A stretch of DNA of 63,480 nucleotides, counting the filler, from Phoronis australis (lineage: Eukaryota; Animalia; Phoronida), in assembly GCA_002633005.1 (NCBI GenBank). It is 11 parts of 11 records of this genome, joined end to end, with 100 filler letters (N's around TTAATTAATTAA, not from the genome) between each part and the next. Parts side by side here need not be neighbours in the genome. Positions count along the whole stretch, not along the records: positions 28,076 to 33,752 come from NMRA01000078.1; 10 more parts are not named here. One strand, given 5' to 3'. Shown here piece after piece: positions 1,728-55,592 of the stretch. The position numbers were made by a program, and so were the translations under genes. The notes under the pieces are model-generated. The model was not told where the DNA came from and searched no databases. It was given only the letters and a program-made list of their open reading frames with translations. Numbering within the stretch: position 1 is the stretch's first letter; the number at the start of each line of letters is the position of its first letter.

Positions 1728-1889
1728 GACACACTGATTAGCGAGTTGCTGGAGTTGAATAACGGTAGAGTTGATGCTATACTGAACAACAAAGATGATC
1801 CGGAGTTCCTCAAACGGAACTTACTCAAAGTCCATGTGTATTTTGAAGATTTAAACTACGAAGAAATTAGTCAAAAACCGGAATACACG
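1728..1889 (+). CDS. DEG/ENaC (amiloride-sensitive channel family) penultimate coding exon
   Basis: Acceptor tttcag, donor gtagga, 162 nt, phase 0-0. Encodes DTLISELLELNNGRVDAILNNKDDPEFLKRNLLKVHVYFEDLNYEEISQKPEYT; NLLKVHVYFEDLNYEEI..K..Y is the conserved pre-TM2 segment (ASIC [23 protein letters not shown]). Upstream exons not found in the window. Confidence 0.92.
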
Positions 1890-2893
1890 GTAGGAATTTT
1901 TAATGAAAAGGGAAAACATTTTTTTACTTTTAACATATTCACTCCTAATAAATCAAAATGATGTGCTATCTAAGTCATAATAAAGACGCACGCACGCACG
2001 CACCACTAACTCACTTAATGGTCGCTTAGTTTTTGACGACGTACATGTAGGTGATGCCGGATGTCAAATGTGTAGTTGGTTGCGACAGAACCCATTAAAC
2101 CCAAATAGATGTTTTGGCAGTACGTTGAGCCACTGCGGTTTCACACCCGGGGTAGAATTGCTCGGGACCCGTTTGCAACCCATAAGAGGAATGACATTTT
2201 CTTTATTTTCGCGGAAGCGCTTCGGTGAATCTGAAATCACCGCCGTTCCGTTGTAATTACTGCGGTAAATATAAAATCACCGTGGCAATTTCGAAATCAC
2301 CGTGACGGCGGAGATTTTCAAAACCATCGAGAACACCGTTCCATTGGAGTAAAAATTTAGAGAGTATTATAGAATAATCCTTCAAGCTACATTTCATGTG
2401 TATGTTTTACTTTTGACTTTTAGTAAATCAAGTTTTCGGATTGCCTATACTGTATCGTTTGAGGATTTCATTGAATTTCAAGGCATAACCACAGCTCTCC
2501 ATGCCCATTGCTTCAAACATATATTTTAATATGAACTTAAAGTTCATTTTCTCAAATCAATCCTCTAGTCGAATGCACAAGAATTCATCTAAATTCCAGC
2601 AAATTTGAATTGTTTATAAAGGTATTCCTTTAAACCTTACATTCAGAGGAGATCACTGATCACTGTAGACGAATCTACATTTTTTTCGGTCGGATCTGAA
2701 ACTGGGTGCGCATAGTAACCCCAATCGTCATCAGGAACAGTTGGAGAATAATTCCATAGCCAATACTCTCTAAGCAGCTTTTCAAAAGATTACTGTTCTC
2801 GATCTTCTGGAGTTGTTTAACTTAATTGTAAACATCTTTGTCGTGAGCGGAACAGTTGAGGAAAATGTCAAATTTTGCACTCGTTTGACTTTG

Positions 2894-18030: not shown

Positions 18031-19703
18031 CTTTTAAATTAAAATTCTAACTACATGTGCAAGTGTATTCTTGGGAATTTTTTTGAAATTGAATTTTGAA
18101 CACATGTACATGTAGATGGGTTTAATGCAAAGCTCCCGTTGCCCCCAGAAAGTAGCCACGGAGGTGAAAGATAGGAGAGCTGGGACTTTGGCCTAACGTA
18201 AACGCTTAGATCCGAAGGTTAGTGACACGTGACTCGTATAATGAAAAACAGTTCCTCAGTCTTTGGGAATTGTTTTCACACGTTTGGTGTGCACTGCTAT
18301 TAGAGATGATCTGAAGAGGGTAGCAAAAATGTAGACACGAGTCGAAATTCGTCAAATCGAGTTCACTTTTAGCGAATCCTTTGTTGTCGAGTAAAATGAC
18401 ATGGTAACCATTGTCGATCTGTGCAACAGTAACTAAAAAGATTGACTTTGTTAGGTAGGCCTATAGTGAGTAACCACGCAGATGTAACTCGTGTCATTCC
18501 AAACATTATACGATAAGCAATAAAACAACAGGCAATTATAAATGCGATTTTTGACTTGTGATTAAAAGTCAACCCTATTTCGGGCCTTGAGTGTTTGCAA
18601 AGAGAAAAAATACATATTGTCTGACCCTTTTTATCGTATTTGAGATCGACATGTTCATTCAGTATAAATATACCCGTTTTAGCCGTAAGTTGTTAACTTT
18701 TGGAATGCTTTACTGCAATGAAAAATCCCATTGTATTCTAAGCTTCATTGTCCTGATATATCTACGTTTCAGCGTGTTCACCAGTGATGTGTAAACTTTT
18801 ATGTCGCCATGGTTTCCAGAAAGATGAAAACGGATGTGACGTGTGCAAATGTAGAGCGAAGCCAGGTATAACAGTGAACTGTTTATGATCTGTAATAGCG
18901 TCCTGTATTCTGTACCTGTAACTGTAAAATAGGCAGAATGAAGTTATCACTAAACACCAATCGCGAGGTCATGGCAAGGTGGACCTGGCTAACTATGTTT
19001 CCGTTATAAGCCAAGCGCAGTCTGAGAATTTTCACAGACTTCAAATCAATAAAAGTCTGAGGGCCTTGGTAATTTCACTTCTACCAATTGCAAAAAAATA
19101 GTCCCACCGGTTCTCTCAATTTTCGCTATGACTGGTTCGCGACATTTCCCCGAAACAAAAAGTGGGTAACTGGTGGCTAACCCGTAAATTTGTTAAGCCA
19201 CTTAAATTCATGTGCACTGTCACCTTTCGCAAGTTCAATTACATGACGTTCATTTTTTGACTTCATGTAGTTATCAGTTCTTACTCAGCAATGTTTCACA
19301 TGTTTACTGATCGTTTGCTTCAACGGTTTTCTTCTTATTTGCAGTCTTGTGTGACAATGATATTCTGTTAAAATGATTTCAAACTCGGTTTTTCCTAATT
19401 AACAGATATTGAGAACAACTTTCCCATAGAGTTATCTGAAACAAAATAATGCTCTGTAACCTTAGACAACCCTCAAAATTTGTAAACTCCTTAAAAGTCT
19501 GCTAAGCGAACAAACGTAACCAATACTTTAGGCGCGGTTACACTACTGTACGGTATACCACCCTCCCAGAACCGTGTCCAGTTTGTGACTCAGATTTTTA
19601 CTTGAATCCTACTCTTATCAGTCATTTGGGACGCCAGGCATTGATTGAACTCACCAAAAGAAGGTTTTATATTCTTTTAAGAAAAGTGTTGATGGTATTT
19701 TAG

Positions 19704-19808
19704 TGTGTCGGCGTAATGTGTCACTGTGCCGACGTAGACGTCACTGTCGCTTTGGATTCCTGAAAGACAAGAATGGATGTTATACTTGCAAGTGCAAACG
19801 CAGACCAG
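19704..19808 (+). CDS. Secreted WAP/antistasin protein, exon 5 (antistasin domain 1)
   Basis: Acceptor tattttag, donor gtaaat, phase 1-1; MCRRNVSLCRRRRHCRFGFLKDKNGCYTCKCKRRP (C..C..C.xGF..D.NGC..CxC). Confidence 0.9.
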
Positions 19809-20050
19809 GTAAATGTATCACATTTTCGATTACTCGTGTGAACGTGACGATGCCCGGGTTTAAAAGGGTCGGGAGGTAGATGTAGGCGCAATGAACATGC
19901 AAGAACGCTCGATCCATTTCAACCGGTGACGGACGACACCGCCATCTGAAAAGTTATTTCGAAATAACAGAAGAACGTTATTATGGTCGGTTAATTAAAA
20001 CATTTCAGAAGTTATAGTTCGACTTCGAAATTTAATTACGTTACTTTCAG

Positions 20051-20137
20051 CGTGCCAAACGACGTGTAGACGATTTTGCCGTTTTGTATTCGAGAAAACC
20101 GAAAAAGGATGTCTCACTTGCAAATGCAAAAGACCAG
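20051..20137 (+). CDS. Secreted WAP/antistasin protein, exon 6 (antistasin domain 2)
   Basis: Acceptor tactttcag, donor gttgta, phase 1-1; ACQTTCRRFCRFVFEKTEKGCLTCKCKRP. Confidence 0.87.
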
Positions 20138-21820
20138 GTTGTACTTTGATTTATAACGCAATATTTTTGTGTCTTTTGTTACAACCGGAGATAACGTGTT
20201 GCAATCACATGTGGTTCCTGTATTTCCAGATTTGAAAGATAAAATTATTTTCGAAATTTAAATTTGACGACTGGTCATTTTAATTTTGAACGGTAACTTT
20301 TCGCTTATACAGTGTTCGGCCAACGTTTTAATCGGAGGGTATTATAAACGCTGCATTATAATAAAAGGAGACAGAGCCTTGCCTGGTTTGCCGTCTGAAA
20401 AATTACATGTGAAATAGCGACAAATGGTAGAAACTGCTTTCTCATCGTGACAAGCCTATATGTTATTGATGATCAGACTCTGTTTGCCCATGGTGCTTGT
20501 CACAAGTGATTGGCCTGGATATCAGCAGTTTGGACGTTGATGTTACGTTAGTTACTAGTAACACGGCTAATAGAAAGCCTTTGCACGTGAACGATCGTTT
20601 TAAGCGTAGATCTGCCTTCTGACAAGATGGCTTACCTGCTTTCTTACGAATGCGGTATTAGACCACTCTCCGTTATGAAATGGATAGTTCCGATCAACGC
20701 AGTTAAGCCACTCCCACCATAGTTACCGTTGCAATGTCTCCAGCCAAAAGCAATTATGGCGGTAGTTCCCTGCAAAGCAACTGAAGTATTATCGGGTATG
20801 TAGTCTTAACAACCTCAGTGGTCTTGGGGCGAATTGCCCGCTACACTCAACGGAATATCTATGATTCTAAATCTTTGAACTCATTCACAGATTACTAAGC
20901 CACTGTCGTCAGCCGACCTTCAGCATGAATCAAAAGCTGTTTAGTTGTTGGTATGGTTTTGCACTGTACTCTGTGATAATTGACATGATCATTAGTTGCG
21001 CTGGTAAGCCAGAGCTTAACGGGTTTGTTCATGTTGGGAATAAACCGCTCAGTCTTAGGTTGTCGACGTAAAGCACACGTGTTGACACACACACATTTGA
21101 TTATTAGCCTAATTTACATCAAATACTAGCAAAGGAAAATATTACCGGGGTACGACCAGTCACTTTCACTTCAGGCTTGTTTAGTTTAACGTATACATGT
21201 ACAAATTAATCCAGACGATTGTGAAATCTACAACCACATACTTTTATATAGCGTGAACTCCTTTCCTTTTTCGCTTTCCGTTAACTGTTGATCTATAAGG
21301 AAAGTGCCACACAGACACTCCACTCAATGAAAACCGCTTTTCAGCCGAATGTTTCTGGGGCTGTGGATGTCGATCGTAGTGTTCATATATTCCCGCAACC
21401 TGGTTGCCTGGTACTTGAAGACTAGTAGCTTGATTGGTTGACATGTCGGAGCTATCCATCGGTCTCAACTTGGTTTCACATTCAGACTAGAGGCAGTCTC
21501 TCTTGGCAGACAACTAAAGACTCCAGAGTTCAGCATCTTACGGAGAGTCAACCTTTGCTCCGAGAATGGTCTCAAGCAATAACCAAGTCCAGAAACTACT
21601 TCTCATCTGAACAAAAACACAGTTGAAGCCACTTTATAGTACTAGACGGTCTAAATTTTTGACATAAGGCGGTTCTACAGTAGTCTTAGGTAATATAAAT
21701 TTACATGCTCGCGCTTGGAACGATTCATTTTGTTCACAAAACACCCATTTGCAAAAAGGCGATTTGTTTCACTTACATGTATCAAGAGCCACCTTCGCTC
21801 ATTGCGTTTTCTTATTCCAG

Positions 21821-21975
21821 TGTGCTTTCTTCGTGCTTGCAAGAGGCATTGTCCCCATGGCTATAGAAAAGATAGAAGAGGGTGTCAAAGCTGCAGATGT
21901 AAACCTAAAATCTACTTCAAAAACTTCAAAAGATTCTTTGATAGAAATGCTGTATTGAACATCCGAAATATGTAA
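21821..21975 (+). CDS. Secreted WAP/antistasin protein, exon 7 (antistasin domain 3, basic tail, stop)
   Basis: Acceptor cttattccag; VCFLRACKRHCPHGYRKDRRGCQSCRCKPKIYFKNFKRFFDRNAVLNIRNM*. The seven exons sum to 705 nt = 234 aa + stop with all phases compatible. Confidence 0.9.
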
Positions 21976-24530: not shown

Positions 24531-25111
24531 ATGTTTCTTCTTCTTGATTGTTTTTGGCACACGTTTCTTCACCCTGACTGGGTCTGTTTTAGGTCGATTC
24601 AGCAGTCTCCTTTTGTTGTGCGTATGTCGTGTACTGGTGCTGCTATCGTTTGACGAGACTAAACTAACTGACGAATGTGAACGGTCTTCACTCTGGAGAG
24701 ATGACGATGATGGGGAAGGATAAATAAAGCCAGAGTCTGGGTCTTTGGTGTAGTTGGCATCATGAGATGGTATTGATGGCAGGGAGTTTACAGGATGCTC
24801 TGATGGCGGATTGTACAAAGCCATGCAACTGTCCGCACGTAGACTCAAGGGCGTGTCTTCCGTTCTGTGAGCAAACTTTGATATGTCTGTATTGGCCCTC
24901 TCCAGTTTACCCTGTGGTATGAGTTTGTTCAGGATCGCCATTTTTCGCAGCTGTTGCTTGTATTTGTTGATGTTTTTCAGGAACCGGGGACACCGGATGC
25001 ATTCCTGACGAGCGATTCGCTTGACTCGAGGCAGTTCATCTACGCACAGTTTACCAGCGTAGAGCAGACGAAAGTCTATGTTGTCAATGTTACGCAATAT
25101 ATTCACTGCAC
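24531..25111 (-). CDS. MATCAP: MATCAP/KIAA0895-family last visible exon, truncated by the spacer
   Basis: Acceptor actttcag; GAVNILRNIDNIDFRLLYAGKLCVDEL...PRFLKNINKYKQQL, then a Ser-rich and Lys/Arg-rich extension that stays open to the gap. Confidence 0.9.
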
Positions 25112-26054
25112 CTGAAAGTACAAGGTAACCTCAACATTGTCCTGAAAATGTACACAACAAATTGCTACCAGAAGTATACTCAGCTCTAAGTCAGCCACAG
25201 CCAGTTGGCAACAATCTTAAGTTGAATTTTAATTAAAATTTTCAGTGTCTTGACGTCATTTCGAAATTTTTACCACTATTCAATGTACAGGTCAGACAAC
25301 AACATATAAATTACATAAAATAAAAGACATAGCTGACACGCAATATTTTATGTAATTTGCATTATTACTGTGAGAACAATTTATTAAATGTTCATAGATG
25401 AACTGAACATTATACCTGAAGCTTGACAGATAATAATAAATTACTAATTAATGTATGGAAAATATTAGGAGGTGAAGAGCATTTTTACAAAATATCAAAA
25501 AAACATTTGCTAACATTTTCTTTAAAAAATACTTTTTAATCAGGAACAGAGTGGCGTGAATGACACAGACCCTTAAAGCCACAGACTATAAACTTGAACT
25601 TGAATACTTACCATAAGTGGTCTAAATCAAAAGCCAGTTTCTTCAACACAGCATAGATTGATTGCATTTACAAATTTTCAAATATTTAAAGCAAGACTTC
25701 TTTGATTTTGTTAAAGGGGGACATCAGCATTTTTTACCTAAAAAAGCAAACCTCCTGACACATTTCAGTGATTATGCTTGTCCCAAGGGCCTTCTAGGCA
25801 TGTATTAACAGTGAAGTCAGACAACCCATGACTTTCTTACATCCCCACTTTGCATTTTGTAGCACACACAGGTAAGGACCTGGGGAACAGTGTTTACGGT
25901 TAAGTAGGACCTTCAAAAATAGCCAAATTTGAAAATTCTAGATTTGATATCACTAAATCAAGGGAAAAAGGGGGTCCAGACACCCTTGGATCTGTCTATG
26001 ATTTGATTTAATGACAGCATACCTTGCCAGTGCCTGTAAACACCTGCAACTCAC

Positions 26055-26222
26055 CTTCAAAATAACACTGATCTCCGCCATATCCTCCAGTTCCACTTGG
26101 GTCAGCCAGACCTCGTTTAACACGTGTCACAAATCTCCACCGCAGTTCTGGGTTCATTACATATCGACCAAGATGGGTAAACAACTCTTGAAATGTCATT
26201 GTCTCTGACATGCAAGCAGTAT
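26055..26222 (-). CDS. MATCAP: MATCAP/KIAA0895-family internal exon
   Basis: Acceptor ctaatag, donor gtgagt, phase 1-1; YTACMSETMTFQELFTHLGRYVMNPELRWRFVTRVKRGLADPSGTGGYGGDQCYFE (RW..R.KRG..D.S..G...DQ.Y). Confidence 0.92.
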
Positions 26223-26770
26223 CTATTAGAAAGAATATGTATTATTACAATTTTGACATAGTTTAAACAAAAATACTTATTTGTTTTGATGCACTTTAAG
26301 TCTTGTTAGCAATTCGACATCACTTGTAAGAATGTACAGATTGAAGTGGCATTAAAGTTGTGCTTTCTGTCAAAAAACGAGTTTTGAATTAGGCCACATA
26401 CCATTATAAAATTAGTTTGAAATTGTTCTTTACTAAGTTTAGATGTGATCTCAGAGATCTAAAAATGATTAAAAGAAACTTATCTCTCATGGTTGTAATG
26501 CATTGGATTCAAAACAAATTCTCGGCGACTGACTACCGTTCCCTAGTAAAGTTGTATTTCTCTCTAGGATTGTTCGGTTTTTGACATGAAAAAAGATTTG
26601 TATGTCTGGAATTTGTTGCATTTGATTTTTGATTATTTACAAAAATCTCAATTCTCGATATAATGTACATCTATCAATACATGTCAGGATGTTGTAGTAA
26701 GTGTTTATAGTGATTTTCATGCAATAAAACTGATACATAATATTTTGTACAAAACCATTGTGAAACTTAC

Positions 26771-26939
26771 AATATGACAATGCAGCCACTTTCAAGTATT
26801 GTACATTAGCCTGCAGAACGGTGTTTATTGTAGCTAAGCCCTCTTCTGTCTGAACTAGTTCATATGATCTCAAAGAACGCAGACCAAACTTCTTCCGATC
26901 AGAGAACCACGGCTGTAGGCCATCATTCAACATACGGTA
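26771..26939 (-). CDS. MATCAP: MATCAP/KIAA0895-family tubulin metallocarboxypeptidase, internal exon
   Basis: Acceptor catgcag, donor gtaagt, phase 0-1; YRMLNDGLQPWFSDRKKFGLRSLRSYELVQTEEGLATINTVLQANVQYLKVAALSY carries the family QPW...TEEGLA...AAL.YY motifs. Confidence 0.9.
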
Positions 26940-29900
26940 CTGCATGTCAGTTAAGGGACACATCTTAATTCTAGTTTCCAGAAGTGACCATATTGCCTGA
27001 TGGATAAAACTCAAAAGCACTGCATTTTACAACTTAGAAAAGAGTTAAGATTCAAGCACAAATGGAATATGCAGGTGCATACTTAACCGCTGGTATAGCC
27101 AGAAGTATTCAGCAGGGGGGATAAATGCAAAATTGTCGGTGGGTGTATATGAAATAAGTGGATACCTGGAGACACTTTCCAATGAACAAGGGGACAAATG
27201 TAATGGGTTTTGGCCAGATGTGGACTTTTTGCAATGAACGGGGGGGGGCATGGCCCAATTGAGTCCCCCCCATTGGTCATACAGGTGTTGTTAACAAAAA
27301 GTAGTCTCCATTTTGACAGAAAGTAGTTACCCTGACCAGATAAGCTGCATGAGCACAGCATAACAATATATATTATAGCTTTCACATGGTGGGCGCAAAA
27401 TAAATCTTGCACTGAAATTTATCAGTAGTGTGTGCAGCATACAACAAATATATTCATTTAGATAGTTTGGTCTGGCCACATGATTATTAGCTTACATTAA
27501 GTCTGTTGGTAATGATCGCTCCAAAAAGTAATCAAAGATTTATACTTAAACAGTAAATCAATACACTTATAGATAGATTCTATTGATAGCGGTAATGATT
27601 ACTTCAACCATTCTATATACATTGTATAATAATAGTTTCACCAATCAAAAATTAATTCTGACATTGTGTGTTTGGAATAGGGTGTATTACAGTAAATGCG
27701 TTGAGTGCCTACATGTCCTTGTTAAAAATATTATATGTTAAAGAAAAAAAATCTTGAATAAGAGATTTGATGCATTGGACCATGACAATCTTGGAGTACA
27801 TGAGCCCTTCCCAAAGAGTCCAGGAAATCGAAGCCTTAAATAAGCCAATTTTTTTTTAACTTTCAACAAGTTTTGAAGTCTCTTCAACTACTGAAAGAGG
27901 GACAAAGATCTGAATGTGAATTTGTCAGGAGCATGTTCATACTGTTTTGAGCTACACCAGAAAATATGAAACTAANNNNNNNNNNNNNNNNNNNNNNNNN
28001 NNNNNNNNNNNNNNNNNNNTTAATTAATTAANNNNNNNNNNNNNNNNNNNNNNNNNNNNNNNNNNNNNNNNNNNNAAAATGGTGACTAAGATAAACTACA
28101 ATATCGCACCCTGTTAGGGTTCTGAAATTGGACTACTGCAGAAAAGCTAATTTAGGGACATTTTCCTAGGTAGAAATACAGTAAAACCTAGCCAAAATGA
28201 TGTAAACTGAATGCGGTTTGTTGAAAAAAATTTTAATTGCTAGGCAATCACCATGATATGTAATTGTCATGCGAGTCATACGCGACAATGGACAGAGATC
28301 TGCACTTGGAAACCGTTGTCGCTAGGAACTGAAACTAAATGAGGGCTATTCGTAATGTGACCTGAAGGGATGGTGCTTGCAACAGTAAAACATGAGTCAT
28401 CCCATGACACACTTAAAATCAATTGTCAGCATTTTATACCTCTCCTGAAGCAAATGGTAACTGTTCATAACATCTTACATCAACAATTGAAAAGCTAGCA
28501 AAAACCCTATGTAACACGTGACATCTCTGACACCACTGCCAGCAAATATCTTACGCTGCTAAACGTTGCAATAATTGAAATGTACAAAACAGTTATAATT
28601 ACAAAGAACAATAATTGCCCTTAGCAGCTACAAAACTAATAATTAAAAACATGTTTACAACGCTAAAACTAATTACAGCTGAGTGTGACATATTTGCCTA
28701 AATTATTGCCACGTGGATGGACTGAAAAACGAGACAGTGTTTCACACGAAATAATTACCATTTCCCCTTTTCAAACAATGGCCACTTTGAGATGATAATT
28801 ATGAGTTATAAAGAGTTAAAGTAATTCTTCCCTTATTTCGCACAAAAATAATTGCCAAAATTGACATTTGTCTTTCTTGCATAAAATAAATGGAAACTTG
28901 CCAAATGCTATTACATGACTTCCACACACCACACACCAAGTTAACAATACTAAAATATTATTTATCTTTCTTGCGAGATATTATGTATTTTAAAACAGAA
29001 TTTCTCATCTCCGCCATATAGCGTGCTATACAGGAGAATAACTGCCACATCGTATTGTTAAGAAACTGTATGAAATGAAAAAACTTGGCAGTAGTCTGCC
29101 AAGCTGTCGGCTAAAATGTGAAACATTAAATTGTGTAAACTGAAAAGACCTGCATGGGGGAAAAATTTTTTTGAAAGACTTCTACAACCAGTACGGGCAG
29201 CAGTGGATAGTCTGTTTTCACCACAGATAGGTGGCGCATGTGTTAAGACAAAATAACAATTGGTCATCAGACTACTAAATAGAAATGCCTATTGCAAAAT
29301 ATCCTAAAAATACAAACTATCAGGTCACAACGACTGGTAACTACAAACTCGTATTTCGTTGACAAACAAGTAAAACAAAAAATAGCATGGTAAATATTAT
29401 CATACATTTGAGACGTTATGGATTAAAATCACAACTTTAATGTTTGGCACGTTCTGGTAGCAGATCTGTTTAATTGCACTTTGATAAAACGAATAAAGGA
29501 TCTTTGACACAGAGGATGTACATATTATGCGTAAACTTAACACCTTGAACTGAAAATGTCAAAAACGGTGACGTAGATCTGCACGATAACAATGAGTTAA
29601 AAGTTGACCTAAAATCACATGACCTAAAATGGTGACACGTATCCTGCCACGTTCTCCACAGAAACAGGACACACTGCGCCTGGTGACTGGACATTTCATA
29701 AAACACATCCTCTTGTTTCACAGATGCGACTATACTTTTTGTTATGAACCCAGGACGAAGTCCATCAAAAAACAAACACCAGCATAAAAAGTCTAACATG
29801 TAACATGTTTGACACAGTAGTCAACATGACTGCAACATACAAAAGTAGCATGGTGCTCCATATTTGTATACAGATGCTGTATTATTCAAATGTACTGTGA

Positions 29901-30248
29901 AATCTCACAAATTTCGAACAATGATGGCTGCCAGTTCCAATCAATGCCGTAACTTTTCAAAACAGTACCTGACCCAGTACCTACCCACAATACAGAACTT
30001 GAAAATGGCAAATCAGTACTTTGGTGTTTATTACCATTTATGAGAAAATGTGAACATAAAATTCTTTTGTCTACCTTCCTGTGTCCTAATCTGATGAGAG
30101 TTCACAGTGCGTTCCTCTATCGAAGAGGCCAACTTAGACACACTCAACAAAGACATGCATATTATATACACATAACTTTACAAAATCGTGTTCACGTGAC
30201 TTGCAAACTCGTAACAAAATTCACCAAGACACAAATTTGTCACCATAG

Positions 30249-30322
30249 TTACAGTCTCGTATCCTCTACTTCTGGTTTCTCCTTCTCTTCGGGCGACAAC
30301 TCCTCGATAGGCACCACCCAAC
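30249..30322 (-). CDS. Podocalyxin/CD34-like membrane protein, terminal exon with PDZ ligand DTRL
   Basis: Acceptor gtttgcag, phase 1; GWVVPIEELSPEEKEKPEVEDTRL*. Followed by about 2 kb of AT-rich putative 3' UTR or flank. Confidence 0.87.
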
Positions 30323-30757
30323 CTGCAAACGTTACATCGATAAGATTAACTAACGGAATCATTTACCAAAGAAAAGCTCTAAAAAGTGCTAAGTTGATAT
30401 GACGCCCACACCACTTGACAACACCATGGATAGCAGTGTTCATGTGCGCCCACTGTGTCCATCGTAAATAAATACGATAAAAAAGTGATCATTTTTAAAC
30501 CAATTGCATGGACTAGAGTAACCAACACCAGAGAATGAGTCTTCGAAGGGCAATGTTAATCACACTAATCTAACTTCTTCTCTAACAGCACTACCATACT
30601 GTGTAAGTAAACTAATACACATTCAGTGAAATCAGGAAGAACCAGTTTATCTGCTAACAATGCCAAAAGACACTTCACATGAAAGACAAAACAAATAAGG
30701 GCGACGCCTGTCAATCAAACAACTAATTCTGGATGATTGATGACAAGTCCCACCTAC

Positions 30758-30905
30758 CATTCTCTTCATCCAGCTTTGTGATTGGCACACCATTGCCATT
30801 AGGCACCTCCTTCTCTAGCATGGGTTGTTCATCTTTCACAATTTCATCATCAGGAATAGGGTTGCCCTGACCGTTCTCACCCCTCTCAGGATCATTCACT
30901 AGCCC
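30758..30905 (-). CDS. Podocalyxin/CD34-like membrane protein, cytoplasmic exon
   Basis: Acceptor tctcatag, donor gtaggt, phase 0-1; GLVNDPERGENGQGNPIPDDEIVKDEQPMLEKEVPNGNGVPITKLDEEN. Not in the ORF track. Confidence 0.85.
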
Positions 30906-32541
30906 CTATGAGACCAGAACAAAATGAGCGGAGGCAGAGATATAAAACACCAGACAGAATCAAGGTTTGGTTTGTGACAAGAAAATTGCTATGTCGGGAG
31001 TAAGAAGTAGTTTTGATTATCCCCTAATTAAAACTATCAACCCCTTTTGGTGAACAAAGAAACCAAGTTTTGACTTACTACACCAGTCGTTACAAAAATG
31101 GTCTCAACTTGTTCATTACTCAGATGAGAATCAATTTGTGGAAATAATTATAAAAGACAGATCATTATTACTTGGGATCATGTTCAGTGCATAACTAGGA
31201 ACCCATTCCCAGTTCTTACCAAGATCAGAAATCACCGGTAATTAGAGAAAATGCTACCTTTGCAACGAGGATAAAACTTTTTAAATTATATTCTATCACA
31301 GTCTTAACACGTGAAGCATGAAAAGTCCCTACAGGGATCTCGGATTTTGAGAACTAGTTTGACGCCCGTTATTCAGTGGAGAAAACTGGTTCTCAAAATG
31401 CAAGACCCATGTTTAATAGTGACTTTCAACAGTATTCTGTTAAAATAATTGTGTATCACATAAATGCTTTGGACAAAAATTATATGAATTTGTCTACGGT
31501 GATGTGCCAGAGTATTTTTTCAAAATAGTCAGTAAGTTTCTTAGAGATCATAGAAAGTACCGCAGAGGCGAATCATTATCAAAAATCCAAATTCTACTTC
31601 ATTATTCAGTAACAGCTACAGAAACATATACCCGATATTTTCCATCACTGCATTTAGCCAGAGAATTGGAAAAAAACAAGAACTTTCAAAAAAATTTGGG
31701 AAACTGGAAATTGTTGCGTTTGGTAAAATTTTTACGTCCAAGTGAAAAACTACAATATTCTAAAATATATGGCCATGCTAATTGTCTTTAGGCTTAATTT
31801 CCAGATAACATATTGTTTCAGAGTTACCGAGGAGTTAAATAAAACAAAGTCTGTTTTTTGTTTAAAAATCAACATTTCAAGTGATCTATTAAAAAATAAG
31901 TCCTTAGCGACATGTCTGGGGTTAGTTAAATAACAGAATGTAGCAATTCATCAAGCCAGATAAATGTTACAAGCATTGTTGATCAAGAGGTACATTGAGG
32001 TCATGTAAGGTCATATTGACAAGCCTGTGCATTTGACCATATATCAACAATACTACAGAACGTAACTCAGAAAATGTACATATTTTCTAAAAGAAGAAAA
32101 TTTGTAGAATTTAGGTTTTTGACTTCATACTTATCTGCCACTAATTAGGTCGTGTGACCACGCATTATTGAAAAAAATTGTAAAAGGAAAGGTTCATTCA
32201 CAGCAAAACCAGCGCCAATAAAATGAACAAATTTCGTGCAACATAAATGTTCAAGATAAAATCTCAAAAAAGCAGTTGTACTTTTCTAAATTGTTTCGTT
32301 TTCATTTTGCACAAGACGAGTTTCTTCATAAAAATCATGCATGTTCTATTTGTTTACTCCTCGAGCAAAAGTGGATTATTTCAAAAACAGTCCCCAAAAG
32401 CATTTTGTAAAACAGTGCATAAAATACAGCACCTGAGAGTTTTATTTGAACCCAACCAGCTACGTCTGAGATACGATGTAAGACAAACTTGGGACATTTT
32501 TCTTGGGTCTTACATAACCTAAAGGACTAATTGCCAGTTAC

Positions 32542-32766
32542 CTTTCCTTTGCGGGGTGTCCAGAAACCATATCGTTGCTGACGACAGCACATGTAGATTA
32601 TGCCGAAGATAATGATGATGATACAGATGGCAGCTATAACCATCATTGCGATCCACAGACCCATGTGTGCCTCAAATACCGTCTCATCGTCATCACCAGT
32701 GGTCGCATCAGGCGTCTGTTTACCCAGTCCGGGATCAGGGCCATATGACACCAACTCATAACCTTC
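32542..32766 (-). CDS. Podocalyxin/CD34-like membrane protein, transmembrane exon
   Basis: Acceptor ttctctatag, donor gtaact, phase 0-0; EGYELVSYGPDPGLGKQTPDATTGDDDETVFEAHMGLWIAMMVIAAICIIIIIFGIIYMCCRQQRYGFWTPRKGK. Confidence 0.88.
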
Positions 32767-33439
32767 CTATAGAGAAAAGCAGGAACATGGACCCGGGCTT
32801 AAGAGTCATCTGATTTACTACACAGGACATCTGCGCAATAAGACAGTCCAGGAGGAGCACATATTATTTTCAAACTACATCAATACAAGCTGTCAGCACC
32901 TGTTTTATGGTTACAGCTACCGACTACAAATCTTGGTGACAATGAAGCCTTTCTTTTATTCTTTACTTTTGTTGAAAAACATACGAGGAAATTCTAAACT
33001 GAAGGATCATTTACACAATGACATGAAAGGAACAAAGGACCTAGCTGAGCTACAATAACTTATAATATAGTAAGTGTTGCCTGTGAGGAGATTTAACTTA
33101 AAAGAGACGGGACGTCTTAAAGTTGGTTTAATTTGAACACTTTCGAGTGCCAAACGAAAATTCAATTGCCAGCCCTTCAGCAGCGTCAGATGACATCCTA
33201 GTGGGTGTTTTATGCTAAGAAACCAATTCTGGATATTGGCAATTTCACAAAAAGATGCGCCTACCTAAATATGTATGTATCCGGAAATAACGCAAGAAAA
33301 TGTAGATACAGAACCTCTGGTACTCGTGAATTTCGCCCAACAGAGCAGACTGACTCCTGCTGAGGATTTATAATTTGTTAACTTTAAGAGTTTTATGCGT
33401 ATGAAAGATTACCATCACCATGTAACGTAAATAACTCAC

Positions 33440-33507
33440 TTTTTCAAACACCTTCTTAAATTCAGGATCTTTTATTATCTTCATCAGTTCCTCTTTCGGG
33501 ATAATTT
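33440..33507 (-). CDS. Podocalyxin/CD34-like membrane protein, extracellular stalk exon
   Basis: Acceptor tttatccag, donor gtgagt, phase 1-0; xIIPKEELMKIIKDPEFKKVFEK, phase-compatible with the next exon. Confidence 0.72.
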
Positions 33508-33988
33508 CTGGATAAATAAATCTTTTATTACAACTCAACAGAACACTATCCTGCCTTTTCACACCACCAGGGCTGTGATGGTGGATATAGATATTAGAAC
33601 TACCAAGCTCACTGATCATAAATAGTGTCAAACACTGTGGCCTAACTGATCAAGGTTTTCAGCTGGAGGAATGAATACAGTGCAGGACTTAATTTCATTC
33701 CAATTTTTTTCAACGTGATAAACAGTCACCAGTAACTTAAGCAAGACTATTTNNNNNNNNNNNNNNNNNNNNNNNNNNNNNNNNNNNNNNNNNNNNTTAA
33801 TTAATTAANNNNNNNNNNNNNNNNNNNNNNNNNNNNNNNNNNNNNNNNNNNNACTCATTCTTTCGTCTCCCAAAATATCTTTGTAGCATCCTTCGTCTGA
33901 AGTAACAAGAATACAAAACATTACATGTTCGTATATTCTATGACAAGGCTGCAGCATCTGCTCTTATTAAAACAATAGCAGCATGAGC

Positions 33989-34077
33989 AAGAGAGAGAGA
34001 GAGAGACAGGGAGAGAGAAAGGGCGAGAGAGAGAAAGAGATGGGGACAGAGAGAGGGGGAGGGAGCGAGGGAGAGGG
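33989..34077. repeat. (GA)n / purine-rich microsatellite
   Basis: Directly visible. Confidence 0.9.
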
Positions 34078-35015
34078 TGTCCATCCTAGTCAATTACTCC
34101 AATTGCGGGTAAAAAGTATTGAAGCTTATGATTTCATGTCATAGTCAAATTTGAAAGCATTCAAGTTTTATATTAAAAGTAGATTTTTTACCGCCACTAA
34201 GGCACTGGGAAATTATTTAATGAGATTTTCGTACTTGTATTCATATTTTGGTTCCATAGTATTCGTTCCATAAGTAATTTTAAGCATTCTTGTATCGATA
34301 CTCACCAAGTTTGTTTCTTAAAAAAAACTTGTAAAACGTGGAAATGAACACCATAAAGAATTTAGATCAAAGGAACCCTAATACCTTCTTAAAGATAGTA
34401 AAATTCCTAAAAATTGTGCAAGTGGTGGGAAAAAAAGTTTCACACAAAAGTTTTGATAAAACAAAACTTCTCCACTATCCAACGGTTTTATGACCTGTTG
34501 ACAATTTTCTAATACTGTACAGTCGTTACAACATGTAGCATTTCGATAATAGGTGAATAATTATGATATAACGGGCCAAACACGAAACCATATTTATCTA
34601 ACTTAATTTTTGAGATAACCCGACACGCGTGTAAAACACTTCTTTCTAGAAAGGGTTGGCTATTTTTTCATGGAAAGTTTGAAAAGGTTCACCTAATTGC
34701 AGCAACTCGATAATGAAAAAACAAGGCGTTGGATGATACGTCTTAGTATGTTAATTCTTATGTCCCAATTTTTTTATTTTTCGGCCATAGGAATTTTAAA
34801 ATGTTAGTGAAGAATTCAACATGCGATATTTTACAACCTTCTTTAGAGAAACCGTGTCCCATGTTGTACTACCGATTCTATCAATCTTTCCCTGCCAAAA
34901 ATTGGAAAATACGTTTTCTACTTTCGGTGATGGTGACGAAAAAAAAAAAATTACCACCTTAGAAACGAGTAATTATTTCAGCAGTTTTTCTACCATACGT
35001 TGTTAAATGTGTGTA

Positions 35016-37923
35016 ACTAAGAGAGTTGATGGCCCTCGGACAAGAAATGGGTCTGCAGGGAGACAATCTCAGACAGTTTGTTGAAAAACAACAAGCTGAA
35101 GCGCGTGCTCAGGTAGAGGCTGAGGCTGAGGCGGAGGAGAGAAGGCAAGCTCGTGAGGCTGAAGAAAGGGCACGAAAGGCCGAACAGCAGATGGAGAGAG
35201 AAATAATGGAACACGAGAGGGCGCTAGCAGCACTGAAAGCTGAACAGGTTGCAGCGGAGGGTAGCCATGTTAGATCAACTGGTGGTGTAAAGCCGAAGCT
35301 ACCTAAGTTTGACGAAAATCAGGACGATATGGACAACTTCCTGGAAAGGTTTGAAAGATACGCAGAAATTCAGGGTTGGACACAGAGTGAATGGGCAATT
35401 AGTCTCAGCCCCCTGTTAACAGTTAAGGGCCTGCAGGTTTATACTAGCCTTCCTATGGCTGATGCACTAGACTATGCTACACTCAAAAGAGCCTTGCTAA
35501 AGCGCTATGAGCTGACTGAAGACGGTTTTCGCAGACAGTTCCGGGAAGCGAGGGCCGAGAAGGGCGAGACAGCATACCTGTTTGTGGCACGCATACAGCG
35601 TTACCTAGACAGGTGGATCGACATGTCCGACTGTGGCAAATATTTTGCTGAGTTTAGAGACTTGTTAGTGCGGGAGCAGTGCGTTAACACTTGTACTAAG
35701 GACTTGGCCTTGTTCCTGCGAGAGCGGACACCCAAGACTGTTCCAGAGATGGTGAGCTTAGAAGAGAGATATATTGAGGCCCATGGAGTGGATATAACGA
35801 GCACCCAGTGGAAAAATTCCCAAGAGCGACCAGTCAAGACAGACAACCAGAGAGTCAATCAGAAGAAAAATTACCTCGCAGAGGAAANAGGGCCGAGAAG
35901 GGCGAGACAGCATACCTGTTTGTGGCACGCATACAGCGTTACCTAGACAGGTGGATCGACATGTTCGACTGTGGCAAAGAGTTTGCTGAGTTTAGAGACT
36001 TGTTAGTGCGGGAGCAGTACGTTAACACTTGTACTAAGGACTTGGCCTTGTTCCTGCGAGAGCGGACACCCAAGACTGTTCCAGAGATGGTGAGCTTAGA
36101 AGAGAGATATATTGAGGCCCATGGAGTGGATATAACGAGCACCCAGTGGAAAAAGTCCCAAGAGCGACCAGTCAAGACAGACAACCAGAGAGTCAATCAG
36201 AAGAAAAATTACCTCGCAGAGGAAAGGTGTTTCTTCTGTCACAAAATTGGACACCTGGCTAGAGACTGTCGGAAGCGGAAACAAGGGATGCAACACCAAA
36301 AGTCAGCAGCGGTCAACCACCGAGGTTCCCAGAGCTAAGAGGATTCGGTGAAGCGTGCTAATCCTGAACGCGCCTTCAAAGGAATGCTGCGTCTGAAGGA
36401 GGGGTATGTTGGCACTAAGAAGGTCTCAGTGTTGAGAGACACAGGCTGCACAACCATTGTGGTTCGATCTAGTTTAGTCGAACCAGGAGATATGACCTGC
36501 CGGAAGTGGTCATGCGAGTTGGCAGACTCTACCAAGGGATGACTGCCTGTCGCAAAGATCAACATCAAGACACCGTACTACACAGGAGAAGAGTTCGCGA
36601 TGTGTATGGAGCGTCCAGTGGCCGATTTGATTATCGGGGACGTGCCTGGCGCCTTGGACCCAGGCGATGTTGAGCGACAGCAGAGAGCAACTGCCAACGA
36701 GGACAATACAGGCAATAGCCTTGTGGAGGGTCCGAAAGACGATTCTCAAAAGGGTACGACTTCCCAAGAGAAGAGCCTAGTCACCTCAACTCTAGAGGGA
36801 GAATAGGTGGCTGCCAAGTCGGCAGGAACAGATCCTGATGAATCCAGCAGGGAATCGGTAGCAGTGACTACCAGGGCTCACGAAGAGCGACAAAAATCGG
36901 ACATTAAACCGTTAGCTGTGTCCCCAACCATACAAGAAGTGGGACTAAAGCAGTTCGAAGAAGCCCAGCATGAAGATTCATCAATGAAAAAGTTGTGGGA
37001 GCAAACTGAAGCCAAGGTTAAGCGACAGACCAAAGGCAAGGGGTTATACGTGATGGAGACTCAACGAGGAATACTCTATCGCATGTTCAAAAAGAAAGAC
37101 GGTGACGAGGTGAAACAAGTTGTCGTGCCGAGCAGTTTACGGAAGTCCGTGATGAGGCTTGCTCATGAGTCTATACTCGGTGGACACCTCGGTGTTAGGA
37201 AGACAACTGACCGTATCACCAGTAATTTCTATTGGCCAGGAGTGGCATCAGAAGTGACCCGATTCTGCATATCATGCGACATCTGTCAGAAGACTATACC
37301 TAAAGGTCGAGTGACCAAGGTACCCCTGGGATAGATGCCTTTGATGGATGAGCCTTTCAAAAGGATTGCAATCGACCTGATTGGCCCTAAAGCTCCAGTT
37401 TCCGACAAAGGAAACAGATACATTCTCACGGTGGTAGATTTCGCTACCAGGTATCCAGAAGCAGTGGCGCTACCGAAGATTGAGACAGAGCGTGTGGCTG
37501 AAGCATTATTAGAAGTCTTCAGTAGAGTAGGGTTCCCACGGGAGATCCTGAGTTATCGTGGAACGCAGTTCACAGCGGAACTGATGAAGGAGGTCAGCAG
37601 GCTTGTAAGTGCAAAGCAGCTGTACACGACCCCTTACAATCCACGCTGTAACGGGCTCTGTGAGAGAATCAACGATGTTGTGAAGGCCATGCTGAAGAAA
37701 ATGTTTCAAGAAAAACCGAAGGATTGGGACCGGTATCTGCCAGCTGTCCTATTTGCTTACCGAGAAGTCCCGCAATCAAGCACAGGATTTTCACCCTTTG
37801 AGTCATTATACGGCAGGACAATGAAAGGTCCTATGCAAATACTGAGCGAACTCTGGACTGGGGAAGACAGCAAAGAAGTCCGAAATACTTACCAGTATGT
37901 CTTCGAGCTCAGGAACCGCTTAG
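35016..37923 (+). mobile_element. Gmr1-like Ty3/Gypsy LTR retrotransposon gag-pol, pseudogenised and truncated by the spacer
   Basis: Coiled coil, capsid (PKLPKFDE..DDMDNFLERFER), SCAN-like region, zinc knuckle CFFCHKIGHLARDC, protease LRDTG, integrase HHCC (AHESILGGH...CISCDIC) and core (IDLIGP..NGLCER). Four in-frame stops (36336, 36540, 36804, 37332). No RT between protease and integrase. Confidence 0.95.
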
Positions 37924-44345: not shown

Positions 44346-45295
44346 GACTTACCCCGTGCTTGCCTGTGAAACGACCGTGCGGCTGTAGCGAAGGCTGCTG
44401 TCGGGTACGCCTGGAATGTGTGCTCCGTTGGTCCATTATTACCAGCTTCGAAAATCTTCATTTCGGTCTTTAATAGCGACCTCAGGGTGGCCAGCGGCAT
44501 GTTGATATCGCCTTTGTTTTGCCTGGCGATGTTTTGACGCATCGCTGGGCTTAACTTGTCCAATATCACGGGAACGAGTAGGTCCTTGTTTTCATGAGGC
44601 TCCAGGGTAATCAATGTCCGAATTAGTTTCTCAATTTTGTCGTAAAATGAGTGAAACTGTCCGGCTGTTGCGGGTGGCATGTTGTAAATTTGTCTTAACA
44701 GTTCGCTTTTGAGTTTTGTCGATGAGCCGAATCGTTCCTGCAGTAGGCTTATAGCCGTATGATAGTTTGCTGCCGTAATTTGCAGTCCATTGATGACATC
44801 CTTGGCAGCACCCTGCAGTGTAGATTGCAGGTACTGGAACTTTTGGACATCCGTCAGTTTGGAATTGGTGTGAATGGACGAAGAAAAAATATCCCAGAAT
44901 GTTGGGTAATCTAAATATTCACCCGAAAATTTTGCGAATTCCAGTTTCGGCAAGCGAATGATGTTTGCGGTTGGAGTCGGAGCAGTCACTGTGGGCGGTG
45001 TTGCAGTTGGTTCAGGTTCGGGAATGAGAGCTATGGCCAGCTCAATGTCCGTGATGTAGTTTTCATCAGCGTCAATTTCGGCTTCCATATCACTTGGCGG
45101 TAGGAGGGGGTGCAGTTCGCCGTTGATGTTGATGACAGTCTGCAGTTTTTCGGCGATGAGATGGGAAATCGCACGAGCTTTTGGATGGTCACCTTCATGC
45201 AGTGCTGTATCCAACTTGTGTTTAAGTTGTGTTATTTGTCCTTTCTGTGCCCCTCTCTTGACTCTGAGGAGTTTGATCTTCTCTGCCTTGTCCAT
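44346..45295 (-). CDS. BEL/Pao retrotransposon Gag (DUF1759-type), intact up to the spacer
   Basis: ATG at 45295; RLPKLEFAKFSGEYLDYPTFWDIFSSSIH..KLTDVQKFQYLQSTLQGAA...NYHTAISLLQERFG; no stops in over 310 codons. Confidence 0.92.
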
Positions 45296-45308
45296 GGTCA
45301 CGGCACCA
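45295..45308 (-). promoter_or_regulatory. Primer-binding site (tRNA-His type)
   Basis: TGGTGCCGTGACCA lies 3 nt after the LTR end ...CCCACA and is complementary to the tRNA-His 3' end (GUCACGGCACCA). Confidence 0.8.
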
Positions 45309-45311
45309 AAA

Positions 45312-45585
45312 TGTGGGATTCCAAAATGTGGGGTAATTAGCGGGTTAACTAGATGAGGTGGCTCGATGTGCTGAGCAGAGAGCTGATAGAGAGCGTCTTA
45401 ATGCTTCGATATATTTAATCAAACTGAGTTCTACACGACACATACATCTGTTAAGTTCCAAGAAATGATTCATGCCCAAATACATATACATTGTGGTTAA
45501 GAGAGGAAGAGAGGATGGGTTACAAAGAAAGACTGAACACACAGAGAGTGAAAGTTGCATAATGATTAATAGTTCCTAGTATACA
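45312..45585 (-). mobile_element. Putative 5' LTR of the BEL/Pao element (about 274 bp)
   Basis: TG(TATA)...(CCCA)CA ends and internal ATTAAA; the 5' boundary is inferred because the second LTR is not in the window. Confidence 0.6.
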
Positions 45586-54262: not shown

Positions 54263-55592
54263 AGGAGAATGCCACCCAGAAAACAACCTTTTTTTGTATC
54301 AGTTTAGATGGAGTAGTTCCACTCGATAACAGCAAGTTCAGTTGTTTTACCTGACACCTAACTGCAGATGGAGGTGTTGAAATTAACCAATGACGTAATC
54401 GGTTCGAATGCAGTCTGTTCAGCCGTTCACAACAAGCTTACTGGTGTCAACTTATCGCTTGAATTCATCGTTTTACACCAATAAATCATCAAAATTCAAT
54501 GTAAACCCCTTACAAATACATCGAGTTCTTGAACAAACGTGTTGTTTTATTTTACTGTTACGGATTATAGGTATTTGAACGTACTGTAGCCTACAGAGTT
54601 CTCCTGTAGGCCAATTTACCATGGTCAGTCGTGGGATTTTGGGTCTGTTTGGTGATAAATTCGAACCATTCTTCTGTGAAATGGCTGTATTTGTATATCC
54701 AAACAGATTCCCTAACATGTGACCATAGAATATAACATCAAGTTATTGTTTCACAACAGCTTTCTTGTCAGCAAACACTGAATTAGCATGCGCTCACATG
54801 GCCTCGGTGCCCGGTCAATTACCTTTATAATTATTGCATCGAAAGCCGGTACGCAGTGGTTTAGTCATTGCTGGCTTCTCAAAAGATTTGCACTCTCGAA
54901 TACTCCAAAGGCATTACAAGTTGTATCTAACAAGACAGACTTTGTTTCAGTTTGATACAAGCATGGGTTAGGGTGAGAATAATTCACTTTGAAACAGAAC
55001 GCAGAATAATAGCGTCTACTTGGCCACTCAGTCGGCACCAATCCGGACTTAGTCGAGAGCTCATCTGACGAAGACTCCACGGGTCGGATCATTAGGTTTC
55101 ACAGGCTATCAGTTCGAACCGGAATACACTGATCAAGAAATACTAGAGAGGCGCTGTGAACATGCACAGGAATCTGAATGTAAGGATAGTTCTTTGGTAA
55201 GCCGGAATTCATCAGAGAAATCACTCTCAACGAAATGCCGGCCACAGACACGATGTTTCATGGCCTCATACTTGCTTTTAACAGACGTGTATTTTTCGTT
55301 CTTCACTACCGTGAGCCACTTCCTAAGCATTTCAGGCTCTCGAGGAAGTCGAAAACACAATGTACCTGCTTTCTTCGCAGCTCCATAGTTGGGACAAGCG
55401 GGAACGTTGCACAGCAATATAGCGACATTCACTCTGCAGATGAACCACTGACGTCGCTGTGTCATTTCTCACCTTCCTCACAGGTTAACGCGACACCTCA
55501 CGGCAAGATGAGGTCAACTGTATAAGAGGCGATGTGGATATAGGCCGATTAAGGTGGTACAAAAGACTAATTAAATCGGGTGGCATTCTCCT
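54263..55592 (-). mobile_element. Internally deleted Kolobok-type DNA transposon with a THAP-domain relic, in a VPS51 intron
   Basis: TTAA|AGGAGAATGCCACCC ... GGGTGGCATTCTCCT|TTAA (15-bp perfect TIR, TTAA TSD). Minus-strand THAP CNVPAC...FRLP...W...RVCGRHF (55133-55465); plus-strand relic GYQFEPEYTDQEILER. Confidence 0.85.

Follow-up and report, generated by a model that had tools for sequence, protein, structure and literature searches.

A podocalyxin-like membrane-protein gene in the phoronid Phoronis australis, a likely invertebrate relative of the CD34 family

Podocalyxin and endoglycan are described as type I membrane proteins in which a mucin region is followed by a globular domain, a transmembrane (TM) helix and a charged tail that carries a DTxL PDZ motif, and a tetracysteine, disulfide-bonded globular domain next to the membrane is treated as a feature of the CD34 family (PMC2193439, PMC2171597; here and below, statements on cited papers hold for the available parts of their text, unless another scope is given). 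DTHL is the podocalyxin form of the motif (PMC1796660, PMC2193439) and binds NHERF (PMC1796660), while the C-terminus of CD34 is DTEL (PMC2193439). The tail of PODXL (residues 483-558) is 76 amino acids (aa) long and its globular domain has been modelled as a four-strand alpha/beta fold (PMC12922080), and the genes of the family have 8 exons, with the TM in exon 7 (PMC2193439, PMC3819108). In the model developed for podocalyxin, the glycosylated acidic stalk spaces apposed membranes and promotes the apical/luminal domain, and the tail recruits NHERF via DTxL and ERM proteins via a basic juxtamembrane patch (PMC1796660, PMC2171597, PMC12922080). The locus described here lies in a window of 63,480 nucleotides (nt; the whole stretch of DNA analysed) from the phoronid Phoronis australis, in which short contigs are joined by N-TTAATTAATTAA-N spacers, and is the 3' end of a podocalyxin-like gene sitting on the piece 28076-33752. 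Sequence comparisons make it likely that this gene is a cysteine-free, pan-bilaterian pro-orthologue of CD34/PODXL/PODXL2, that is, the spiralian descendant of a single ancestral bilaterian gene.

How far the family has been followed outside vertebrates can be judged from a full-text literature search, in which the best-listed matches described no invertebrate podocalyxin/CD34 homologue (Pei and Grishin 2017 may mention some) and no paper was found stating outright that the CD34 family is vertebrate-only. PMC3819108 treats conservation of the family within vertebrates. Among the matches listed for invertebrate excretion, podocalyxin has zero occurrences, and a term search of the main text of PMC12113024 and PMC5315740, which deal with invertebrate podocytes, never finds it named; in the available parts of PMC2607016 and PMC5787515 it stands beside amphioxus only as a mouse-cell marker or in a listing of fish PODXL2. 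PMC11136496, PMC6586460 and PMC13570299 together supply the domain scheme, refer to Pei and Grishin 2017 and offer an earlier example of furin cutting within a SEA-like domain, that of KIAA1549. What appears to be new here is that the family reaches ambulacrarians and protostomes and that one of its genes there is seen transcribed and spliced, the Pfam tag of the amphioxus proteins being already present in automatic annotation, which tempers the surprise. It is tempered further in that, if the three vertebrate genes arose as paralogues by whole-genome duplication, an ancestor older than vertebrates is to be expected; in human, CD34, PODXL and PODXL2 lie beside plexin A paralogues (PLXNA2, PLXNA4, PLXNA1), as copies from such a duplication do.

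The transcribed locus in Phoronis australis

The podocalyxin-like locus is the 3' end of a gene for a single-pass membrane protein, and it is both transcribed and spliced. Its four coding exons (A to D, on the minus strand; Table 1) are separated by GT-AG introns of 673, 1636 and 435 nt, with phases 1|0|0|1, and scripted splicing yields a 170-aa open frame with one TM helix (Kyte-Doolittle 19-mer maximum 3.3) and an 87-aa tail whose C-terminus is EDTRL. RNA-seq runs were chosen by species label, three as raw reads and a fourth (X1) as contigs. The 673-nt junction is spanned by 59/65/19 reads in the three raw-read runs, the 1636-nt junction by 67/79/36 and the 435-nt junction by 94/67/25, the first mate lying always on the plus strand (in most stranded libraries the mark of minus-strand RNA), and the X1 contigs carry the same three exon joints. 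Frame, splice sites and junction reads in all three raw-read runs thus bear out the four minus-strand exons, the TM helix and the tail of the original prediction, with one correction: what was labelled 'stalk' includes more than stalk, as exon A aligns with the last helix of a predicted SEA-like domain.

Upstream of exon A, 57/61/13 reads join a further exon to position 33507, of which 10 codons are visible, in open frame and with an FVAK motif at the place of the third SEA strand in homologues. Three reads of run X4 join another upstream exon to exon A (33509), which suggests alternative splicing within the ectodomain. Both upstream exon ends seen in the reads were searched for in the window and not found there, so that the pieces past the spacer are not the 5' part of this gene and the ectodomain is cut off by the spacer at 33753, where the loss of the mucin exons had been placed from the start.

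Within the 1636-nt intron, a short repeated element at 31344-31400 is covered very deeply by RNA from either strand (raw reads, about 370-720x in each direction; X1 contigs, 5779) and shows opposite-strand joints; it is probably an abundant repeat of the short interspersed nuclear element (SINE) or miniature inverted-repeat transposable element (MITE) type.

An invertebrate protein family and its probable link to CD34

To judge from sequence similarity, the product belongs to a family with members in the proteomes of an annelid, a nemertean, a brachiopod, hemichordates, echinoderms and amphioxus (Owenia CAH1783961.1, Tubulanus XP_074645784.1, Lingula XP_013416967.1, Saccoglossus XP_002738036.1, Strongylocentrotus XP_003730244.2, Branchiostoma XP_035676033.1 / XP_078595555.1), whose members carry database labels such as 'mucin-17/-22/-5AC-like' or are uncharacterised. 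Exon B alone, searched with phmmer against 1.84 billion representatives, gave 11 matches at E<=0.001; ten were looked up, and four are named (Saccoglossus, Tubulanus, Owenia, Lingula), one is a JGI hypothetical fragment and five are unnamed. Identity with the spliced window peptide is highest for the JGI fragment (49% over 141 columns), followed by Owenia (46%), Tubulanus and Lingula (40% each) and Saccoglossus (34%), and the named spiralian and hemichordate relatives have the same TM, tail motifs and end (Lingula without the EDTxL end). A profile of the relatives' C-terminal parts (7992 scored candidates) recovered amphioxus (E 2.6e-17) and Strongylocentrotus (E 4.4e-17), along with one urchin-like protein and two of its own seeds. 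A second family profile (7997 candidates) returned 17 proteins, namely 15 named echinoderm, hemichordate or amphioxus proteins, one further relative and one noise match, and no vertebrate protein. A word-based search with exon B alone found nothing among 17 candidates, which is weak evidence. Two family profiles run against PDB sequences brought up TM-level noise or no match, and an NCBIfam scan gave nothing relevant. A profile-profile comparison of two family alignments was discarded, as both contained window exons and hence were not independent.

Tail and ectodomain were also scored separately, to exclude TM bias. Without the TM, the window tail reaches 83.7 bits with a profile of spiralian tails (shuffle maximum 6.3) and 36.5 bits with one made from deuterostome tails only, where the best of 500 shuffles gives 7.2. 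Amphioxus scores 32.8 bits against the spiralian ectodomain profile (shuffle maximum 8.2) and 69-73 bits against a non-chordate one; the short ectodomain piece in the window, taken alone, gives 0.5-1.3 bits, which is not significant. In a midpoint-rooted tree of 15 rows, built without an outgroup, spiralians including the window gene group together (99/96), as do ambulacrarians (94/94) and amphioxus (100/100), which agrees with the invertebrate character first attributed to the gene. The tree follows animal phylogeny, as expected of one vertically inherited gene. Intron positions, inferred from the points where genomic open reading frames (ORFs) run into an intron, are shared as well: that of intron A-B coincides with two sea-urchin ORF fragments and one further fragment, and that of the post-TM intron with a nemertean isoform break and the ends of five fragments.

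Most of the ectodomain is missing from the window but can be seen in the relatives, which have, as anticipated, a signal peptide and a mucin region ahead of a globular domain next to the membrane. An N-terminal hydrophobic stretch is found in 12 of 15 homologues (the misses being two partial records and one without the N-terminal region), and a serine/threonine-rich region of 170-760 residues, with 24-37% serine plus threonine, in 13/13 full or near-full homologues, net acidic in 12 of them (one fragment and a 5'-short Diadema model were left out of this count). AlphaFold2, run on the nemertean (Tubulanus) protein with a 15-row alignment, models a beta-alpha-beta-beta-alpha-beta domain at 224-343 (block predicted local distance difference test, pLDDT, 70-92), followed by the TM and a disordered tail. 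Its top-ranking structural matches are SEA-like domains next to the membrane: PCDH15 (Z 7.8, root-mean-square deviation 2.8 over 99 aligned residues), a nuclear-pore chain (Z 7.0; to judge from the Foldseek listing, Nup54), CELSR1 (6.8), CDH23 (6.6), GPR126 (6.3), IA-2 (6.0) and the MUC16 SEA domain (5.7); in a fold search with a half-domain model, the TM helix dominated the matches. The modelled domain thus resembles the SEA-like folds of the collectrin/ACE2 neck, PCDH15 MAD12, CDH23 MAD28, the IA-2 ectodomain and MUC16 SEA, and the ferredoxin-like domain of Nup54, a likeness at fold level only (8-17% identity), ectodomains and tails being different. Pei and Grishin in 2017 reportedly found the CD34-family globular domain to have a SEA-like alpha/beta fold, and the membrane-proximal domain of the invertebrate proteins is predicted, on this model, to be a cysteine-free SEA-like domain. 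The small cysteine-bearing globular domain that had been proposed was not found: 14 of 15 homologues have no cysteine there, and the part of the ectodomain encoded by exons A and B has none either. As the tetracysteine feature was looked for and is absent, the gene is filed as a cysteine-free pro-orthologue and not as a strict-sense member of the family, and the comparison suggests that the SEA-like domain is older and that the globular-domain cysteines of CD34 were added to it in vertebrates.

Several members depart from this common plan. D8C and trefoil domains are added in Owenia and Lingula, and an F5/8 type C domain in amphioxus isoforms. In Owenia CAH1783961.1 (about residues 420-760), the SEA-like domain is seemingly split by a mucin insertion of about 200 residues directly after a polybasic RRRRKR site.

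The tail was surveyed in 16 family rows, the window product included. A cysteine followed by a basic residue, [DEG]NP/ESP, NG and a loose W/I-V-P element are kept in 16/16; EDTxL, in the form EDT[HKR]L, ends 15/16, and DTHL 11/16. The window product has DTRL, two named spiralians and the JGI fragment DTKL, and deuterostomes DTHL, all 11 tails of the deuterostome group ending exactly in EDTHL. The six colinear motifs of the original prediction were therefore overstated: the juxtamembrane CC (3/16) and ENG (1/16, in the window only) are not conserved across the family, and PMxEK and WVVPI each occur in 5/16, but a core of C-basic, [DEG]NP, NG, W/I-V-P and EDTxL stands. The exception at the C-terminus is Lingula XP_013416967.1, which does not end in EDTxL and shows a run rich in cysteines beside the membrane; either the PDZ ligand was lost in this lineage or the last exon is wrongly predicted.

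The link to vertebrate CD34 and podocalyxin is transitive, since the sequence searches retrieved no vertebrate protein, but several lines of comparison point to it. Against Pfam PF06365 (CD34_antigen; gathering cut-off 26.3 bits), all five amphioxus proteins scanned score 27.1-31.6 bits, over profile positions 77 or 102 to 204, the match covering the TM and the whole tail up to the last profile position; among the invertebrate relatives, only the amphioxus members carry the automatic PF06365 tag. The profile is listed for 12 of 15 scanned family proteins, as best match in nine, and in Ptychodera the match reaches into the pre-TM domain (E 7.9e-4). The window exons, scanned singly against the same profile, reach at best 16.1 bits. 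In the ESM Atlas, the nemertean TM and tail (identity with the window peptide 40% in the aligned part) find a podocalyxin cluster first, at 0.87 (a lead only under the tool's 0.9 bar), with 135 shared features vs <=93 for the other listed rows.

With PODXL and PODXL2, then, the invertebrate family shares the domain layout seen in the relatives and the DTxL end, the window tail being 87 aa long vs 76 aa in PODXL, and an intron lies shortly past the TM in both the window gene and PODXL. Exons A and B would correspond to vertebrate exon 7, and C and D to exon 8, each split by an extra intron. PODXL introns 6 and 7, with phases 1 and 0, would fit the exon A start and the exon B end, the former probably lying just before the last globular-domain helix and the latter about ten codons past the TM. 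The window gene differs in having DTRL and not DTHL, two extra introns and exons that score below the Pfam cut-off, and the family in lacking the tetracysteine and in carrying furin-like sites in some members. As for CD34, the Pfam family of the amphioxus match is its own and the Atlas CD34 cluster ranks ninth for the nemertean SEA, TM and tail, but the invertebrate ends are closer to podocalyxin/endoglycan (DTHL) than to CD34 (DTEL).

Function and ancestry weighed

By analogy with podocalyxin, the O-glycosylated, mostly acidic mucin stalk would cover apical or luminal surfaces with a bulky coat that resists adhesion. The DTRL end would bind a PDZ scaffold of the NHERF type and the basic patch beside the membrane an ERM protein, the coat being thereby tied to cortical actin; coelomic, vascular and nephridial (podocyte) epithelia would be the likely sites. 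DTRL is the CFTR ligand of NHERF, and both NHERF and ERM proteins occur in invertebrates. That a podocalyxin-like gene not only existed in the protostome-deuterostome ancestor but also works with NHERF/ERM on podocyte, coelomic or vascular apical faces is a tentative proposal, with the odds somewhat against it. If it is true, podocalyxin did not originate in vertebrates, and in the kidney filter the glycocalyx component equals the nephrin slit diaphragm in age. The likely ancestry of the gene would by itself date the family of podocalyxin (a protein of the vertebrate kidney filter) and CD34 (a marker of stem cells) to the first bilaterian animals. Research on the origin of ultrafiltration tracks nephrin and other slit-diaphragm genes, and the candidate orthologues in Owenia, Lingula, Saccoglossus, sea urchin and amphioxus make the use of a podocalyxin-NHERF-ERM module in invertebrate podocytes, coeloms and vessels testable.

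Could the protein be a true homologue and yet do something else? It might be a mucin shed after cleavage by furin, or a receptor for adhesion in gut or epidermis, bound to a PDZ scaffold other than NHERF and with no role in ultrafiltration, a reading that is compatible with the ancestry claim and competes with the mechanism alone. R-x-[KR]-R sites in the ectodomain of 6/14 homologues speak for it, and would suggest stalk shedding in some lineages; so do the trefoil, D8C or F5/8-C domains added in Lingula, Owenia and amphioxus isoforms, the lost PDZ end of Lingula, and the finding that the vertebrate podocalyxin tail is dispensable for microvillus induction (PMC1796660). The retention of EDTxL in 15/16 tails across protostomes and deuterostomes argues the other way, as it implies a conserved PDZ partner. 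A different function is a serious possibility without being the expected one.

The ancestry claim itself has a number of results standing against it. Exon B, with its 16.1 bits, ranks CD34_antigen fourth behind three other families and over the TM only; scans of exons C and D gave no match to the profile; among the first 11 phmmer matches it is listed, at E<=0.05, for one, and a scan of Tubulanus and Lingula did not list it; and no scanned spiralian, echinoderm or hemichordate member reaches the cut-off, nor was a CD34 match found in any of six isolated segments (four tails and two ectodomains). Three word-based searches and the HMMER search retrieved no vertebrate protein. Amphioxus is the weak point, because its Pfam match sits on the most divergent tail of the family, which scores 3-6 bits against the other tails, a level reached by 1-36 of 500 shuffles. 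The podocalyxin ranking in the Atlas falls below that tool's bar, and with the SEA part included collectrin comes first (0.91) and CD34 ninth (0.86). For the modelled domain, every structural Z-score is below 8 and Foldseek puts ACE2 first (E 4.4e-4). The vertebrate tetracysteine motif is absent from the homologues, in which the 160 residues before the TM hold no cysteine in 14/15 cases and one cysteine in the other. Finally, sialylation, central to the charge of podocalyxin, is probably scarce in protostomes.

These results leave room for an independent invertebrate mucin-SEA-TM family, resembling collectrin, KIAA1549, IA-2 or dystroglycan, with only the widespread SEA fold in common with CD34 proteins and a DTxL PDZ ligand acquired by convergence. 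SEA plus TM is a recurring layout, collectrin/ACE2 outrank CD34 once the SEA part is included, the isolated tails are without a Pfam CD34 match, the globular domain is without cysteines, and the sequence searches brought back no vertebrate protein, all of which would fit. Yet the amphioxus match passes a curated cut-off over TM and tail, whereas Collectrin (PF16959) is matched weakly, at 12.6-15.3 bits (cut-off 27.1; E 0.016-0.11) in 3/15 family proteins; 11/11 deuterostome tails end exactly in EDTHL, and podocalyxin tops the Atlas for TM and tail. Collectrin, too, is not known to have a mucin region or a DTxL end. An independent origin is, on balance, improbable, and descent from one ancestral bilaterian CD34/podocalyxin gene is preferred. 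A vertebrate or contaminant origin of the contig, with an ordinary divergent PODXL/PODXL2 on it, is hardly credible: a contig CpG observed/expected ratio of 0.60 is all that was found for it, whereas the gene has two introns more than the vertebrate exon 7/8 layout, its RNA is carried by three runs of the same species label, and its spiralian nearest relatives and its place among spiralians in the tree (99/96) rule that origin out unless the named spiralian records are mislabelled.

The Atlas listing headed by collectrin also holds, from nematodes, a 'SEA domain-containing' cluster (610 aa, TM 0.40) and a DUF8077 cluster (0.84), as well as a cluster with cnidarian members (0.87); these are leads to candidate ecdysozoan or pre-bilaterian members.

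Coordinates and other features of the window

Table 1. Features of the podocalyxin-like gene of Phoronis australis (positions along the window).
Feature	Position	Strand	Details and evidence
Coding exon A, last helix of predicted SEA-like membrane-proximal domain	33440..33507	-	68 nt, phase 1 start; GT-AG, frame, RNA depth and junctions; aligns to helix 317-333 of the nemertean AlphaFold2 model
Coding exon B, last SEA strand, short stalk, TM and basic juxtamembrane segment	32542..32766	-	225 nt, phase 0-0; frame, RNA; phmmer relatives
Transmembrane helix, about 23 residues	32590..32658	-	Hydropathy; kept in homologues
Coding exon C, cytoplasmic tail with GNP, PMLEK and NG elements	30758..30905	-	148 nt, phase 0-1; frame, RNA; tail-profile scores
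Last exon D, coding part: WVVP element, C-terminal EDTRL, TAA stop	30249..30322	-	Frame, RNA
DTRL, predicted class I PDZ-binding motif	30252..30263	-	Sequence; EDTxL closes 15/16 family tails
3' untranslated region, >2.1 kb, reaching contig end	28076..30248	-	Unbroken stranded RNA depth, about 16-89 first-mate-plus reads per bin
Intron A-B, 673 nt, phase 0	32767..33439	-	Junction reads; position recurs in sea-urchin and other ORF fragments
Intron B-C, 1636 nt, phase 0, 14 codons past the CC closing the TM	30906..32541	-	Junction reads; position recurs in nemertean isoform break and five fragments
Intron C-D, 435 nt, phase 1	30323..30757	-	GT-AG, junction reads
3' end of upstream intron, cut at contig spacer	33508..33752	-	Junction reads, spacer position; signal-peptide, mucin and most SEA exons beyond it

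Past the spacer, positions 33853-37923 hold two 2035-nt pieces of a Ty3/gypsy-type long terminal repeat (LTR) element joined by one N; some of gag occurs on either side of the join, at 35601-35858 and again at 35939-36196, which is likely an assembly overlap. The element has a SCAN domain in gag and an integrase-like ORF directly after the protease region, an order like that of Gmr1. Elsewhere in the window, a DEG/ENaC/ASIC channel exon lies at 1437-1961 (+), exons coding for cysteine repeats of the antistasin type (Pfam Antistasin, E about 1e-6) at 19649-21975 (+), MATCAP-like exons at 24534-27026 (-), a DUF1759 ORF, presumably a BEL/Pao-type gag, at 44349-45397 (-), and a THAP domain ORF at 55136-55468 (-).

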